A stretch of DNA of 64,000 bases from Escherichia phage vB_EcoM_Lutter. The stretch lies in the sequence record NC_054924.1, one strand, 5' to 3'. Positions 445 through 11,806 of the stretch are shown piece by piece; within the stretch, counting starts at the first letter, position 1, and each line of letters starts with the position of its first letter. The notes under the pieces were generated by a model. The model searched no databases. It was not told the DNA's origin and saw nothing but the letters and a program-made list of their open reading frames with translations. Both the position numbers and the translations under genes were made by a program.

Positions 445-1023
445 TTAATTACCACGGGCTGCATTAGCAACGGCATAAGCGTACTGAACATTAGCGTCCT
501 TAAACGTACCTTTAGAGGTATCTATTTCTGCCTTAAAGCCGCCTTTAGCCATAACATCGGCAAATTCTTTACGGAAAGCCATTGCATCAAGACCTTTCCA
601 TGATGATTTGTGCTTAGCGAATTCAAGACCAGCGTAGTTGACAGCCTTAGCTAATTTATTATCAATGACCCATTTACCGGCTTTAGGCACAAACTTCGGG
701 CCTTTTTGTTTAGAGAACAGTTTTAAATTCCAGCGACGAAGATCACTGTCGGCTTTAACAAAAGCTGCGTCTAAGTTACTAGCAACAACATCTTCAATAT
801 GAGCAAATTTAAGTCCGTCAACTTCAATATTTAAATCGGTACGCCAGCGAAGTCCTTCCCAAGCGAAAGCTTTAAAGTCAGAAGCCTTTGTAGCTAAGTA
901 TCGTTCAATAGGAGCTGTTTTAGGGTCAAAGCCGTTTCCCGATCGATAGGTCCACTCATCTTTATTAATGCCTTTGGCCTTTTCCACAGAAGCTTCAGCG
1001 ATAAATTCTTTATACGTTTTCAT
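445..1023 (-). CDS. ipIII: Internal protein III (capsid-packaged, injected)
   Basis: 192 aa ORF; N-terminus MKTYKEFIAEA is the T-even capsid-targeting sequence with an I-A-E protease site; size and position match T4 IPIII. Confidence 0.8.
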   Translation of the reverse strand: MKTYKEFIAEASVEKAKGINKDEWTYRSGNGFDPKTAPIERYLATKASDFKAFAWEGLRWRTDLNIEVDGLKFAHIEDVVASNLDAAFVKADSDLRRWNLKLFSKQKGPKFVPKAGKWVIDNKLAKAVNYAGLEFAKHKSSWKGLDAMAFRKEFADVMAKGGFKAEIDTSKGTFKDANVQYAYAVANAARGN

Positions 1024-1087
1024 TTTTGTTTCCTTGTTTGTTTTGATAGAGTAATTATACCATATTAATACTTAAGCGTAAACCGTT

Positions 1088-1348
1088 TAAGCTTCACCGC
1101 CAGAAATAATTCCGAAGTTGTTAAAATCGTATCCAATATCGTCAACATCTACTTTAGGACTTGTAGCAACATAAGCAATTTCACTGCGTTTTGCATAGGT
1201 GTTGATTTCTTTACCATCACCACCTAAGAAAAAAATACCCATTACGTTTTAATGAGCCAAAATCTTCGGCATCACCAACGAAAGCTTTAACTTTAAATTT
1301 GGGGCCTTTGGCATCTGCTTCAGCGATAAATTCTTGATACATTTTCAT
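1088..1348 (-). pseudogene. ipII: Internal protein II-like gene interrupted by a frameshift in an A7/T7 homopolymer
   Basis: ATG at 1348 gives MKMYQEFIAEADAKGPKFKVKAFVGDAEDFGSLKRNGYFF then stop; the +1 frame continues LGGDGKEINTYAKRSEIAYVATSPKVDVDDIGYDFNNFGIISGGEA to the stop at 1088-1090; frames join at the 7-nt run 1229-1235. Confidence 0.55.
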
Positions 1349-1354
1349 TTTTCC

Positions 1355-1768
1355 TTAGTAAATTGATTTACCATAGTATTTGTACCAAGTCGGACGTTGA
1401 GCAATTTTTTCATCTAAGCGTGCTTGACTTATCGCAATGGACGCTTCGGACGGGACATAATTATTACGAAATTCGGCAGGGATGTCGGAAATATCCTGGA
1501 CTGTCGTGTCCTTGATTTTGAAACCACGTTTCAAGCATTCGGCGATTAGCTCGATTTGTCGTAAACGTAAAAATTCAAGTTTGTCGTAAAAGAATGTTAC
1601 GTGACCTGTGCCTAAGATAAATGTTGGAGAGATTTTAAAATCCTTTACACGTTTACCGTTTTGAACATGTTTACGGACTGCACCAAATACGCGTGGTAAT
1701 TCACGATACTCAGCCATAAGATGTTGGTCGGTCAGTTCAGAAACAAGTGTTAAATTGATACGAGTCAT
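1355..1768 (-). CDS. denV: Endonuclease V (pyrimidine-dimer DNA glycosylase)
   Basis: [12 protein letters not shown]...[12 protein letters not shown], 137 aa, near-identical to T4 EndoV by recall; track start 1780 is a TTG extension, ATG at 1768 has a GGAGGA SD. Confidence 0.9.
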
Positions 1769-1780
1769 AATTTCCTCCAA

Positions 1781-1827
1781 GTAGTTGATGAATGTATAGT
1801 ATCAAAACCCTTGGAGGAAGTAAACAA
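1781..1827 (-). promoter_or_regulatory. Early promoter with stem-loop (PeSL-like) upstream of denV
   Basis: Minus strand GTTTAC, ~17 nt, TACTAT; 8-bp inverted repeat cctccaag/cttggagg encloses the -10. Confidence 0.45.
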
Positions 1828-3068
<1,241 letters not shown>

Positions 3069-3087
<19 letters not shown>

Positions 3088-3557
3088 TCAGTGATAAAGC
3101 TATTTAAATTTTGAGCATATTTCTTTTCATCATAAATCTTTTGCTGTCTGCGTAAACGCCATGGCATTTCAATGAACGTGTACCATATCCCAGATAATAT
3201 TGCTGCTGTAAAAATATTAACAAGTATGGTTAAAATAATCCAATCTCCCGTTCTGTCTACTGGACTTTCTCCAAAGAAGCAAAATACAAATGATGTCACA
3301 GGAAAACTAATAATATACCACAGAATCATAATCTTATCTGTGAACCAATCAGTGTTCGTTAATTTAGCGCGACCATTATGAATACACACGAATTTATCAT
3401 CTGTTGCAGTAGATGGCTTAACTGGTTGATATCCCATTCTAAACTCCCTAATCAGCAAATTTTTCATATCTTCGGAACAGCCATTCCAGTCAACTCTATC
3501 AACTGAAATGCCATCATCCCCATCATCTAAATCATACCAGCGAGTTTTTAAAATCAT
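3069..3557 (-). CDS. Small membrane protein, paralog 1 of a tandem family
   Basis: 162 aa; two hydrophobic helices then a basic stretch and C-terminal motif FITECRKLK; ATGA overlap with the upstream gene. Confidence 0.6.
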
Positions 3558-6447: not shown

Positions 6448-6658
6448 TTTATTCTCCAAGTTGTTTTCTGTATCAGTAGTTGATAGTTGTATAGTACCAT
6501 GGAAGAACAGGGATGTAAACAGTTTTGTGAAAAAATTTTTTAAAAAGTTTTGGGGAATTCTGGGGCAGGGAGGGGCAATTAAAGGATAGGATAATATATT
6601 ATAACGGGTAGAAACTAAATGATGTCTGGAGAGGCCCAGAAAGGCCTAGATGCCAAAA

Positions 6659-6682
6659 AGCCCCAATCTTTCGGTCGGGGCT
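6659..6682 (-). terminator. Stem-loop downstream of 6690..7163; near-identical copy at 7214-7237
   Basis: agccccaatctttcggtcggggct. Confidence 0.45.
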
Positions 6683-6689
6683 AAGAATG

Positions 6690-7163
6690 TTATTTGATTT
6701 GTTTAGCAGACCAAATGCGGTCTTTGATAATTTTTTGGATGTCTTCAACATACTCAAGAGAGTGAACATGTGGATTATCTTTGAAACTATGAGCTCGCGC
6801 AAGTTTCTGGCCTTCAGTTTTGATTACTAAAAGCTCTTTAAGGATAGCTTCATATTTGGAGATAATTCCTTTAACAATATTTTTCTCTTGTGCGACTTTA
6901 GGATCTGCTTTAGGAGCAGGTTTACCCGAAGCCTTTGCAAAAGCAGCGCCAGTAGCAACTAAACTTTTCCAGGCCATACTAACTGCATTTCCCGTAAATC
7001 CTTCCGCTTTCATGTCGCGTGCGAACTGGAATCGCGATTCATCAGAAGCATCTTTATAGGAATATTTACCCGCTGCAATGGCTGCTTTTGCGACAGCTTG
7101 AATTTCGGTGCTAGATGCTTCATTTAACACCGCTTCATTTAAAAATTGAGTATATGATTTCAT
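6690..7163 (-). CDS. Candidate internal (capsid-packaged) protein with capsid-targeting-like N-terminus
   Basis: 157 aa; MKSYTQFLNEAVLNEA resembles the MKTYxEFIAEA targeting sequence, with two L-x-E motifs; own late promoter at 7200-7207. Confidence 0.6.
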   Translation of the reverse strand: MKSYTQFLNEAVLNEASSTEIQAVAKAAIAAGKYSYKDASDESRFQFARDMKAEGFTGNAVSMAWKSLVATGAAFAKASGKPAPKADPKVAQEKNIVKGIISKYEAILKELLVIKTEGQKLARAHSFKDNPHVHSLEYVEDIQKIIKDRIWSAKQIK

Positions 7164-7199
7164 CTTATTTCCTGTTTTAATTTGTAGATTTAATATACT

Positions 7200-7207
7200 T
7201 ATTTATA
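7200..7207 (-). promoter_or_regulatory. Late promoter (TATAAATA) for 6690..7163
   Basis: Plus-strand tatttata, ~35 nt upstream of the ATG at 7163. Confidence 0.5.
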
Positions 7208-7213
7208 CTAAAA

Positions 7214-7237
7214 AGCCCCAACCTTTCGGCTGGGGCT
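7214..7237 (-). terminator. Intrinsic terminator (stem-loop plus U-run)
   Basis: agccccaacctttcggctggggct; minus-strand RNA is followed by UUUUU. Confidence 0.55.
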
Positions 7238-7242
7238 AAGCC

Positions 7243-7548: not shown

Positions 7549-7893
7549 TTATTTTGGCATATCATCAATTTGCTCTCGACGCCGACGCCATAGATTAATC
7601 GCTTCATTGGCACATTCTGCGTTTGGTATATGACGGCAGCAATATAATGATTCGCGTTTCTGGAACCGATGTTGCAACGGAATTTCGTTTAAAAGGTCTT
7701 TACGGTCAAAGTATTCAAAACTAGTTAACCCGGAACGGTTTTTAAGAAACTTCCAATATCCGAATTCATTTTGAAAATAGACATAATCAGCATGCTGATA
7801 CAGCGAATTAATTAACCTATCGGAAATAACAGTGTCATTGTGATTAAAATAGAATGTTAAATCATGAACTACTAAATAAACATTACCTTTCAT
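7549..7893 (-). CDS. Hypothetical protein
   Basis: 114 aa ORF with ATG start, between the tRNAs and the putative stable-RNA region. Confidence 0.5.
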   Translation of the reverse strand: MKGNVYLVVHDLTFYFNHNDTVISDRLINSLYQHADYVYFQNEFGYWKFLKNRSGLTSFEYFDRKDLLNEIPLQHRFQKRESLYCCRHIPNAECANEAINLWRRRREQIDDMPK

Positions 7894-7909
7894 ATTTTCC
7901 TCACTTAAT

Positions 7910-7985
7910 TGGTCGAGGCAGTAGGGATCGAACCTACGACCTAGGACTTAGAAGGTCCTTGCTCTTCCTTCTGAGCTATGCCTCG
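7910..7985 (-). tRNA. tRNA-Arg (anticodon UCU)
   Basis: Manual cloverleaf: acceptor cgaggca/tgcctcg, anticodon stem aggac/gtcct, loop cuUCUaa, T-loop ttcgatc, encoded CCA. Confidence 0.8.
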
Positions 7986-7989
7986 GATT

Positions 7990-8064
7990 TGGCGGACGTG
8001 ATAGGATTCGAACCTATAACCAATCGCTTAACAGGCGATCGCTCTGCCATTGAGCTACACATCC
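7990..8064 (-). tRNA. tRNA-Asn (anticodon GUU)
   Basis: Manual cloverleaf: acceptor ggatgtg/cacgtcc, anticodon stem atcgc/gcgat, loop cuGUUaa, encoded CCA. Confidence 0.7.
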
Positions 8065-8068
8065 AAAT

Positions 8069-8155
8069 TGGTGGGGAGTGATGGAGTCGAACCACCCGAG
8101 TCGCAATGACAATGGATTTACAGTCCACACCGCTACCTCTACGGGATAACTCCCC
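8069..8155 (-). tRNA. tRNA-Tyr (anticodon GUA), type II
   Basis: 87 nt; acceptor ggggagt/actcccc; anticodon loop cuGUAaa; long variable arm; encoded CCA. Confidence 0.65.
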
Positions 8156-8168
8156 TTAATTCTTAATT

Positions 8169-8243
8169 TGGTGGCCCTGGGTGGAATTGAACCACCATCT
8201 GGCGATTATGAGTCGCTTGCTTGAACCTTCCAGCTACAGGGCC
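8169..8243 (-). tRNA. tRNA with anticodon CAU (Met, or Ile if C34 is modified)
   Basis: Acceptor ggccctg/cagggcc; anticodon loop cuCAUaa; T-loop ttcaatt; encoded CCA. Confidence 0.65.
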
Positions 8244-8251
8244 AAATTTTC

Positions 8252-8734
8252 TTATTTTATGTAGTATTTATTTAAAAACTTTCTAGCTTGAGTATGGCTA
8301 ACATTTATAGCGTTTGCATAATTTTTAATAAAACCTCGTTCATCCATATTAAAATTTTCTAATATTTTTAATCGTCTAGTTATCTCATCTTGGCTTAAGG
8401 TACTTGCATTATTTTTAGAAATTTTTTCTAAAGACTGCACTGAGTGTTTTCGACCATTAAAATTAAAATTTTTAGATTTTGGAGGAAATCTATCATTTAG
8501 TCTCGCATCTTTTGTATTTTGATTATTAGTTGCGCAATATATGTTATTTAATGAGTATGGTCCTTTATCACCAAAACGACACATACAGTATTCATGACCC
8601 TTTCTTCCACGCTTATCATAATTTCCCGTTGATTTCCACCAATTCAACCACTCATCAAAAGTTAAATTCCATTCAATGTTTCTACGTATAGCAGAATTCC
8701 GCTGAGAAATATATTTTGCATAATCTTCTTTCAT
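8252..8734 (-). CDS. Hypothetical protein inside the tRNA cluster; possible degenerate homing-endonuclease-like protein with a C-terminal DNA-binding tail
   Basis: 160 aa from the ATG at 8734; RRNIEWNLTFDEW and GHEYCMCRFGDKGPYSLNN resemble HNH-family fragments; C-terminus SHTQARKFLNKYY resembles the C-terminus of the HNH protein at 9130-9738. Confidence 0.4.
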   Translation of the reverse strand: MKEDYAKYISQRNSAIRRNIEWNLTFDEWLNWWKSTGNYDKRGRKGHEYCMCRFGDKGPYSLNNIYCATNNQNTKDARLNDRFPPKSKNFNFNGRKHSVQSLEKISKNNASTLSQDEITRRLKILENFNMDERGFIKNYANAINVSHTQARKFLNKYYIK

Positions 8735-8781
8735 CACAAATTTCTCTACTTATTACATACACTAAGCTAAATCAGCAAAAC

Positions 8782-8871
8782 TGGCGGAGGCGATAGGATT
8801 TGAACCTATGAGTCGCCGGAGCGACTGCCGGTTTTCAAGACCGGTGCATTAAACCACTCTGCCACGCCTCC
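8782..8871 (-). tRNA. tRNA-Ser (anticodon UGA), type II
   Basis: 90 nt; acceptor ggaggcg/cgcctcc; anticodon stem ccggt/accgg, loop cuUGAaa; long variable arm. Confidence 0.8.
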
Positions 8872-8873
8872 AG

Positions 8874-8947
8874 TCTCCGCGGCAGGATTTGAACCTGCGA
8901 CATTCTGCTCCCAAAGCAGACGCTCTACCAAACTGAGCTACACGGAG
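8874..8947 (-). tRNA. tRNA-Pro (anticodon UGG); CCA not encoded
   Basis: Acceptor ctccgtg/cgcggag; anticodon stem tctgc/gcaga, loop uuUGGga; 2-nt spacer to tRNA-Ser (Pro-Ser dimeric precursor as in T4). Confidence 0.8.
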
Positions 8948-8957
8948 TAAATTAAAT

Positions 8958-9031
<74 letters not shown>

Positions 9032-9036
9032 AAATT

Positions 9037-9123
9037 TGGTGCGAGAAGTGGGACTCGAACCCACAAGGAAATCATTCCGCAGCATTTTAAGTGCTGTGCC
9101 TTTACCAATTTGACCATTCTCGC
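9037..9123 (-). tRNA. tRNA-Leu (anticodon UAA), type II
   Basis: 87 nt; acceptor gcgagaa/ttctcgc; anticodon stem cagca/tgctg, loop cuUAAaa; long variable arm. Confidence 0.8.
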
Positions 9124-9129
9124 GCTATA

Positions 9130-9738
9130 TTATTTATTACGTGAAAAAGACTGTTCTATCAATTCTGGACACTTTCGTTCTATCCATTTTCTAGCTTTTT
9201 GTGGGCTTATACCTATTATTTTAGCAGCTTTACTAACCCATCCAAATTTAGAATAATCGATTTTAACTAATTCTTCGTAAATTTCATCAGTTAAAATCTT
9301 TTCATTAATATTTACCAGTAAATGATATAATTTATTATCATTAGCAATTTTAATGAATCTTTTATAGTTTCCGCCTTTACTTAAACCTAATGAAGTAATT
9401 GCAGATGATATAGTAGCCGAATTTAATAGTGCGTTTAAAATTTCTTCATCACTAACATTATAACGCTTTTTATTATTTTTAATATTTTTACCAGCAAAAG
9501 TATCAGTTTGCGAATGGCAGTTTGGACATAATAATCTTAAATTTGATTTAAGATGATTTTTGTTATTTCCATCAATATGGTCTAATTGCAGAACAATATG
9601 CTTATTTTGCCATTTTGAAATTTTACAAATTGCACACTCATATGGAAAAATATTTTCTTTTATTATTTTGTCTTTCAGCTTTCCTGTACTAAAATTTGGA
9701 TGTTTTCCTTCAAAAATTTCAGCTAATTTAGTATCCAT
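9130..9738 (-). mobile_element. HNH-family homing endonuclease, free-standing, abutting tRNA-Leu
   Basis: CAICKISKW...HIVLQLDHIDGNNKNHLKSNLRLLCPNCH is a canonical HNH/zinc-finger motif; basic helix-turn-helix-like C-terminus; track start 9762 is TTG, start uncertain. Confidence 0.7.
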
Positions 9739-9848
9739 AATATGATTCCCAATTATTAACAAAGGCTCTCAAACAAGAACCCTTGATGATAGAGGGTATT
9801 AATCAGTGCGGTATGAGTTAATAATAACAAATAATTCTTAAAGCATAT

Positions 9849-10721: not shown

Positions 10722-10791
10722 AGTAGTTGATAGGGTAATAGTATCACAACTAAAACCCTATGTAAACAACTTTGTGAAATTATTTTAAATC
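10722..10791 (-). promoter_or_regulatory. Early promoter plus stem-loop cassette (PeSL-like); copy 1 of a direct repeat
   Basis: Minus strand GTTTACA (10761-10767), 17 nt, TACTAT (10738-10743); 30-nt core 10762-10791 is identical to 11092-11121. Confidence 0.55.
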
Positions 10792-11037
10792 TTCTAATCG
10801 TTTCTTCATCTTAGAACCATTTTTAGCAATTTCTCCTGCATCGGAGCATAACGCTAAAAGTGCTTTAACTTTAGTTTGGTCTCCTTTAAAAGACGAAGGA
10901 TCGACCGCAGCAGCAAGTTCTTTAATACGAGAGAAAAGACGCTCAGCTTCAGCTAAAGCCATTCCAAGCTTTACTTCCATACCGTGAGAAGATTCAGTAA
11001 TAGTAGTTTTTGTAGCAAACTCTTTGAAAGTTTTCAT
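10780..11037 (-). CDS. ipI: Internal protein I-like protein (ipI locus, variable allele)
   Basis: 85 aa; MKTFKEFATK... N-terminus; sits immediately downstream of 57B in the transcription direction, as ipI does in T4. Confidence 0.65.
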   Translation of the reverse strand: MKTFKEFATKTTITESSHGMEVKLGMALAEAERLFSRIKELAAAVDPSSFKGDQTKVKALLALCSDAGEIAKNGSKMKKRLEDLK

Positions 11038-11040
11038 TTT

Positions 11041-11806
<766 letters not shown>

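Follow-up and report, generated by a model that had tools for sequence, protein, structure and literature searches.

Between the tRNA/rnaD/rnaC operon and gene e.8 of Escherichia phage vB_EcoM_Lutter, a Tequatrovirus, lies a minus-strand unit of one gene which, we propose, is transcribed late in infection, encodes an injected internal protein (IP) of the kind that carries a capsid-targeting sequence (CTS), and occupies a locus reshaped by recombination between the repeats on either side of it. We regard this explanation, taken as a whole, as probable. The stretch analysed (64,000 nucleotides of sequence record NC_054924.1, hereafter the window, numbered from its first letter) had previously been the subject of a sequence-only reading, according to which the unit is an insulated, possibly mobile, late-expressed cassette for a packaged protein. 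The elements of the unit and of its borders, in the order in which they would be transcribed, are as follows:

Directly upstream of the hairpin at 7237-7214, minus strand: rnaC 3' trailer (by sequence reading).
7205..7240, minus strand: upstream copy of a 36-nt direct repeat, CTTAGCCCCAGCCGAAAGGTTGGGGCTTTTTAGTAT (repeat finder and register check).
7210..7237, minus strand: predicted intrinsic terminator that closes the tRNA-rnaD-rnaC operon, with a 10-bp stem free of mismatches and a GAAA loop at 7214-7237, then a U-tract at 7210-7213.
7237 down to 7214, minus strand: arms of the upstream hairpin, AGCCCCAGCC-GAAA-GGTTGGGGCT, followed by UUUU, AG and TATAAATA.
7200..7207, minus strand: exact match to the T4-type late promoter TATAAATA, 2 nt past the terminator U-tract and 36 nt ahead of the ATG.
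7168..7173, minus strand: Shine-Dalgarno sequence AGGAAA, 4 nt ahead of the ATG (by sequence reading).
7119..7163, minus strand: capsid-targeting-like leader, codons 1-15, MKSYTQFLNE/AVLNE/A, with two (L)xE sites of gp21 type (slashes).
6690..7163, minus strand: coding sequence for 157 aa, phrog_2280 / RB32ORF132c family, starting MKSYTQFLNEAVLNEA, with ATG at 7163 and TAA at 6692-6690.
Between the TAA (6692-6690) and the downstream hairpin, minus strand: CATTCTT spacer (by sequence reading).
6650..6685, minus strand: downstream copy of the 36-nt repeat, which begins 5 nt past the stop codon (repeat finder).
6682 down to 6659, minus strand: arms of the downstream hairpin, AGCCCCGACC-GAAA-GATTGGGGCT, followed by UUUU (U-tract 6655-6658).
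6491..6519, minus strand: sigma70-type early promoter of e.8, TTTACA-17-TACTAT, the same in T4 (promoter scan).

The open reading frame (ORF) and its start were borne out by ORF calling and translation, and the suspicion that its N-terminus resembles a capsid-targeting sequence can be made specific. In an alignment with T4 IPIII, IPII and IPI, the leader MKSYTQFLNE/A faces the start MKTYQEFIAE/A of IPIII and IPII. Amber-suppressor work on IPIII assigns targeting mainly to residues 4 and 7, and processing to residues 8 and 10 (PMC9026906); all four of these experimentally important positions are kept, as Tyr4, Phe7, Leu8 (L/I) and Glu10. The gp21-type site (L/I)-x-E is present as L8-N9-E10 followed by Ala, with a second LNE at residues 13-15. 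Of the 480 Met starts in the window from which 50 aa or more could be translated, three carry the leader motif: that of the unit, that of ipIII and that of a 93-aa ORF beside e. The leader, M[KLI]x[FY]x[EQD]FLxE, is conserved in all of the approximately 13 clusters of the protein's family and persists in members that are less than 30% identical elsewhere. The predicted mature protein would have 142–147 aa, a mass of 15.5–16.0 kDa and a pI of 9.5–9.6, compared to 9.0–9.65 for mature IPI-III. The gene thus encodes a probable packaged and injected internal head protein, as judged from sequence.

The family itself was delimited by a search of 5.8 billion proteins and an exhaustive profile search, which yielded those 13 or so clusters (at 50% identity), all from T4-like phages. 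Nearly all members are named hypothetical, and a single Klebsiella-phage homologue is called 'Internal head protein' by its source. The only match in PHROGs is phrog_2280, for which no function is assigned, and the Pfam and NCBIfam libraries gave nothing significant for the protein. The ORF matches a gene of phage teqsoen at 100% identity, and its product is identical to the protein recorded for phage Lutter. Purifying selection on it is strong: the ratio of nonsynonymous to synonymous divergence (dN/dS) is 0.06–0.12, which excludes a spurious ORF, with synonymous divergence between genera saturated (dS 1–2). The leader is followed by a conserved helical N-domain (approximately residues 17–75, with an invariant GKYSY), a Lys/Pro/Ala linker and a helical C-domain, which is one of two alternative helical types across the family and a helical hairpin in the window protein. 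The AlphaFold model has a mean predicted local distance difference test score of 74.8, indicating moderate confidence. Three database proteins that would represent domain fusions (P0011, P0012 and P0013) were set aside, since they seem to be assembly or gene-calling chimeras; they join a fragment of the family to unrelated pieces, such as tRNA.3-like and radical-SAM-like ones.

A different interpretation of the same protein is that it is expressed late and stays unpackaged, for example in the cytoplasm, its IP-like N-terminus being a relic of ancestry or of leader recombination with no targeting role. This would account for a protein body unrelated to IPI-III and for a strength of purifying selection unlike that of many arms-race effectors, and packaging is, after all, deduced from the leader and from the character of the protein. 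However, the leader is the best-conserved short feature among otherwise divergent members and retains precisely those residues on which targeting and gp21 cutting depend, the mature protein is small and basic like known IPs, and the slot between rnaC and e.8 holds other CTS-type ORFs in several genera. We consider an unpackaged protein unlikely.

The motif scan likewise confirmed the exact late promoter, and it is the conservation of its position across phages that gives the match its weight, since the mere occurrence of TATAAATA is common: the window contains 25 copies against 9.5 expected by chance. The position is conserved in 10 of the 14 loci examined, including that of Jiaodavirus phiKp_22. 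The mRNA leader between TATAAATA and the ATG, approximately 30 nt long, holds the AGGAAA. No sigma70-like site was found by the promoter scan on the minus strand between 7163 and 7260, whereas sigma70-type sites were seen at the neighbouring genes, in agreement with the early promoters claimed for them previously, and also at ipIII and an Ip5-like gene within the window. A late promoter fits a head component, and dependence on gp55 would be predicted.

The flanking hairpins, first described as two near-identical elements, form part of a 36-nt direct repeat (6650-6685 and 7205-7240; 86% identity, spacing 555). The likeness reaches past the stem in both directions (CTT on the 5' side, G-N-AT on the 3' side), and the upstream copy begins 3 nt ahead of the hairpin and takes in 3 nt at the start of the late promoter. 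The pattern AGCCCC-N4-GAAA-N4-GGGGCT was found on the minus strand at 6659-6682 and 7214-7237, the sole two places in the 64 kb, and was matched 0 times in 100 shuffles of the sequence. A GC-rich stem-loop followed by a U-tract is present on the transcribed strand, with 10 perfect pairs and UUUU in the upstream copy; the earlier statement that only one copy has a U-run is incorrect, as both have one on the minus strand. In a 51-nt context the upstream hairpin folds at -25.2 kcal/mol (z = -3.95) and the downstream hairpin at -13.6 kcal/mol, the latter being weaker because an A at 6667 (minus strand) gives a C.A mismatch. The compensatory substitutions proposed between the copies are therefore real for the AG/GA swap, where pairing is kept via G-U wobble, but do not extend to position 6667. 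The mismatched base is common to phages teqsoen and 101117BS1 and thus represents a lineage polymorphism, not a sequencing error. A simple terminator scan called the upstream copy only, leaving the downstream copy, which is of like design, without a call. The insulated unit is bounded downstream by the early promoter of e.8, approximately 135 nt beyond the downstream hairpin.

The possibility that the upstream hairpin belongs to mature rnaC was rejected, because in RB68 and T4 the annotated 3' end of rnaC precedes it by approximately 50 nt. An Rfam search of the window returned tRNAs only, with no family for the hairpins, rnaC or rnaD. A small second hairpin, GGCCCAGAAAGGCC (plus strand), is present at 6633-6646 just past the downstream terminator copy, and is kept in the T4 empty site.

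The region matches 729 phage records, essentially all of them from T4-like enterobacterial phages, and the gene is carried by 469 of these (about two thirds), always in single copy (blastn). A survey of presence and absence among related phages, which had been put forward as a check on the unit, distinguishes three states of the locus, defined by the distance from a fixed rnaC 3' trailer motif to conserved sequence upstream of e.8:

Empty, spacing 57 nt: T4, PST, BYEP01 and ACG-C40.
One cassette, spacing 612–616 nt: the window phage, RB68, e11/2 and locus L006.
Two cassettes, spacing 1301–1303 nt: ZN18 (locus L005) and locus L007.

Between rnaC and e.8, T4 has one hairpin copy and no gene, followed by TTTTTGGTATCTA, as found past the downstream copy in the window. 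In each of the four empty sites sampled there is a single copy of the repeat, with the 57-nt spacing to the flank markers unchanged; a junction query for empty sites was only partly useful, because the search joined its two halves in some occupied genomes. The single T4 hairpin is annotated 'pot. terminator' in record X03016 and the e11/2 record marks both of its hairpins as terminators. The presence of the same annotated hairpin at the same place in T4 identifies the upstream hairpin as the terminator of the tRNA/rnaD/rnaC operon and places the cassette inside its duplication. The gene lies between rnaC and e.8 in RB51, RB68 and e11/2, and the RB51 record already states that it is 'flanked by 34 bp imperfect direct repeat'. 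That T4, PST, ACG-C40 and BYEP01 naturally do without the gene suggests that it is dispensable.

In the two-cassette phages the second unit encodes a 187-aa protein starting MKTYAEFLTEAAK. The second CTS cassette lies between the gene and e.8 (2100-2663 in L005; same position in L007 and L010), in Tequatrovirus and Mosigvirus-like phages; its protein, MKTYAEFLTEAAKLPSE..., has TAATAAATA ahead of it and a different hairpin behind. Other arrangements of the slot were also observed. After position 12391 of L031, the junction of rnaC terminator and TATAAATA is followed by an unrelated CTS-like ORF of 126 aa, MYTVNEFLAETEIITEAG. After the hairpin at 3523-3550 (minus strand) of L019 there is no CTS-like gene, and the late promoter feeds a membrane-protein-like ORF, MKLLKYLSWILLVPLDF..., which sits downstream of the IP gene in L008 and L011.

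Stem variants of the hairpin (AGCC versus GACC) trade upstream and downstream positions in different phages, and in neighbour-joining trees of either flank the empty and occupied phages are interleaved. Both patterns are as expected of recombination or gene conversion between the copies, or of exchange between co-infecting phages. They may be set against a simpler account, in which the hairpins are two ordinary terminators of a generic, convergently favoured sequence and T4 lost the gene through an unrelated deletion. The hairpin does look like a generically favoured strong terminator: a near-identical one, AGCCCCTTCCGAAAGGTTGGGGCTTTTT, occurs in the unrelated viral contigs L022, L023, L027 and L028, and a different hairpin, of shorter length, serves as the downstream terminator in several Mosigvirus-type loci. 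Convergence of this kind does not explain why the repeat exceeds the stem on both sides, why four of four sampled empty sites hold exactly one copy at 57-nt spacing, or why stem variants have been exchanged between positions, as recombination or gene conversion predicts, and we give this account little credence. In the four unrelated contigs, one of which is approximately 121 kb, the hairpin AGCCCC(TT/TC)CCGAAAGGTTGGGGCTTTTT flanks neither rnaC nor the gene.

The locus is older than the genus. In Mosigvirus JK36 the gene occupies the corresponding position, following the tRNA cluster and rnaC, and its flanking hairpins (CCCCTTCC...GGTYGGGG) are closer to each other than to those of Tequatrovirus. 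The protein of Jiaodavirus Klebsiella phage phiKp_22 is approximately 50% identical, and its gene is preceded by AGCCCCGTC-TTCG-GACGGGGCT-TTTT-AG-TATAAATA, so that the terminator/late-promoter junction GGGGCTTTTTAGTATAAATA is conserved. In Tegunavirus fHe-Yen9-01, a Yersinia phage, three ORFs with CTS-like leaders follow one another downstream of tRNA genes (L012 200-2037), encoding 52 aa (MKTYIEFINE), 189 aa (MLQYNEFLKE) and, in last place, the homologue of 178 aa (MLEYSEFLKE); a profile comparison hints faintly at a layout common to the 189-aa protein and the family under study (hhalign probability 33%). Synteny in these three genera with dS >1 indicates that the gene predates the Tequatrovirus radiation.

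This bears directly on the possibility of mobility. The unit is indeed absent, single or doubled among close relatives, as a mobile cassette might be, but it is always at one locus, with a single copy of the gene and synteny across genera. A cassette that was genuinely mobile, like a moron or a mini-circle excised between promoter early stem-loop (PeSL) motifs, would have moved between sites or entered by illegitimate recombination, leaving T4 as the never-invaded ancestor. Such a history would fit the polymorphic presence of the unit, with a single repeat copy where it is absent, the unit's own promoter and terminator, and a topology like that of RB49 ORFan192 versus phi1 (PMC2839356). It is hard to reconcile with one copy per genome in 469 of 469 carriers, a position just downstream of the tRNA/rnaC cluster in every locus examined, the old synteny, and the lack of any transposase, integrase or target-site duplication besides the terminator itself; we consider it highly improbable. 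One site, one copy and old synteny exclude a transposing element and mark the gene as an ancient resident. The simplest history, as far as the sequences suggest, would be an ancestral gene at this site that was lost in T4 and some relatives by recombination between terminator copies.

Several observations weigh against the late, packaged and recombining unit that we favour. At three Mosigvirus-type loci (L009, L010 and L013) a one-mismatch variant, AATAAATA, stands in place of TATAAATA, and the Tegunavirus copy of the gene is without a promoter of its own. The mismatch in the downstream terminator of the window may weaken it and make insulation leaky; a late-promoter-driven, terminator-bracketed unit is consistent with everything computed, with that reservation about its downstream end. 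Past the leader there is no likeness to IPI, IPII or IPIII in sequence or fold, and no informative structural neighbour of the AlphaFold model was found, including among solved structures. An arms-race effector would not usually be under such strong purifying selection or be spread over so wide a range of hosts. The interleaving in the flank trees makes recurrent gain and loss likely at most, the trees being small, short and unbootstrapped. No proteomic or transcript data on presence in virions, cleavage or late synthesis, and nothing usable on RB32ORF132c or the virion proteomes of carrier phages, were found in the searchable literature.

On the explanation that we favour, early transcription of the tRNA operon would be halted at the strong hairpin at 7214-7237, and a gp55-type late promoter, TATAAATA, two bases past the U-tract, would start an mRNA of approximately 0.55 kb that terminates at the weaker second terminator copy, 5 nt beyond the stop codon. 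The leader would most likely recruit the product into the scaffolding core of the prohead, where the gp21 prohead protease is expected to cut after Glu10 and possibly also after Glu15, so that the head would retain a basic protein of approximately 15.5–16 kDa, to be injected together with the DNA. Homologous recombination between the 36-bp repeats, or with a co-infecting relative, would delete, restore or stack cassettes, leaving the locus with none, one or two internal-protein genes. The anatomy of the unit, its conservation, the purifying selection on it and the states of its locus are observed, while late-only transcription, termination, packaging, cleavage, injection, a role against host defence and the mechanism of recombination are inferred from them and from analogy.

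Once injected, the protein probably disarms a host defence, by analogy with Ip1, Ip2 and Ip3, which are injected inhibitors, each acting on a GmrSD Type IV restriction enzyme of its own (PMC12373910); two Ip loci are named there and in earlier work. No significant alignment or structural match to Ip1, Ip2 or Ip3 was found past the leader; this does not argue against a similar role, because those three are themselves mutually unrelated (PMC12373910). An anti-defence role is our best guess on the strength of this analogy, and the strong conservation of the protein argues for a conserved target. Carrying the idea further, the rnaC-terminator site may be a third Tevenvirinae IP locus with a composite terminator/late-promoter repeat, and phrog_2280 an injected effector against a host target conserved across the hosts of Escherichia, Shigella, Yersinia, Klebsiella and Serratia phages, possibly a defence other than GmrSD; this extension is tentative, and we think it rather less probable than its converse.

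Other features of the window lie close to the unit. The order of genes at 445-2594 (minus strand) is e, the 93-aa ORF, denV (1355-1780) and ipIII (445-1023), compared to e, ipIII, ipII and denV in T4, and no ipII was seen within this stretch. The 93-aa ORF (1828-2109, minus strand), a paralogue of the Ip5-like ORF, starts with a CTS leader and overlaps the last part of lysozyme gene e. The tRNA cluster (7549-9762, minus strand) differs from that of T4, with Arg, Asn, Tyr, Met(CAU), Ser, Pro, Gly and Leu tRNAs identified by ARAGORN. Inserted in or next to it are ORFs of 161 aa (8252-8737) and 210 aa (9130-9762), the latter weakly matching HNH, while a 114-aa ORF (7549-7893) lies between rnaD and tRNA-Arg, its counterpart in RB51 being annotated as similar to RB69ORF150c.

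The flanking repeat, as recorded in GenBank, and the general class of gene are already known. What appears to be unrecorded is the full CTS on a widespread hypothetical protein, and the behaviour of the rnaC-e.8 slot as a third IP locus. The family is present in about two thirds of region-matching Tequatrovirus-type records as well as in Mosigvirus and Jiaodavirus, among them many phages used in therapy and biocontrol; if its members are packaged and injected, they are obvious candidates for determinants of host range or anti-defence, and T4, which is naturally without the gene, would offer a clean knock-in background. The locus also provides a simple, well-sampled case of duplicated regulatory signals driving the gain and loss of an accessory gene.

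Among known systems, the T4 internal proteins IPI-III are the most direct comparison for the product: they share the MKTYQEFIAE-type leader, small size, basic charge, variable presence in T-even phages, strand, and location in the e-tRNA-ipI region. The cassette gene differs in lying at a third site, between rnaC and e.8, outside the ipI and ipII/ipIII loci, and its protein is dissimilar past the leader, with far stronger conservation between genera. The cassette has a late promoter only, whereas in the window early promoters precede both ipIII and the Ip5-like gene.

Polymorphic CTS-type ORFs at the ipI and ipII/ipIII loci were reportedly described by Repoila et al. in 1994 as flanked by conserved regulatory repeats, which are said to be approximately 70 nt long and to carry an early promoter. 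That work is cited for polymorphic CTS ORFs between regulatory repeats in PMC4122927 and PMC12373910. The unit resembles such cassettes in having an ORF with a CTS leader between direct regulatory repeats, and in the variation of ORF number and identity among relatives; in contrast, its repeats are 36 nt long, combine an intrinsic terminator with just the opening 3 nt of a late promoter, and contain no early promoter. A classical early-promoter IP cassette is present in the same window at 10727-11125, where the Ip5-like ORF (10780-11037, minus strand, 85 aa, MKTFKEFATK...) lies between repeats of 69 nt (10727-10795 and 11057-11125; 83% identity), each containing TTTACA-17-TACTAT. Each of these repeats reaches into last codons (..DLK*), in one case those of the upstream gene and in the other those of the ORF itself.

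The PeSL cassettes of RB49 and phi1 (Arbiol et al., 2010) consist of a gene between two promoter/stem-loop motifs, with a single motif in the sister phage, and were proposed to arise by recombination between motifs, of which there are dozens over hyperplastic regions (PMC2839356). The unit is similar in that a composite terminator/promoter motif flanks a probably non-essential gene and in that relatives have a single motif and no gene: one motif in T4, PST, BYEP01 and ACG-C40, two in the window phage, RB68 and e11/2. It differs in its shorter repeat, its restriction to one locus and its promoter, which is of late type where an early promoter defines the PeSL. On the tentative extension given above, the composite repeat would be a late-gene counterpart of PeSLs, letting CTS-type genes be stacked, swapped and lost. 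With the morons of lambdoid phages it shares the character of an autonomous single-gene transcription unit set between two other units, although it is co-directional with its neighbours, flanked by homologous repeats, long fixed at one site, and expected to be expressed late in the lytic cycle instead of from a prophage. The closest counterpart of the repeat itself is the T4 tRNA-operon terminator downstream of species 1 RNA (rnaC; X03016), which is identical in element and position to the upstream hairpin, the difference being that in the window phage this terminator has been duplicated, with a late gene between the copies.

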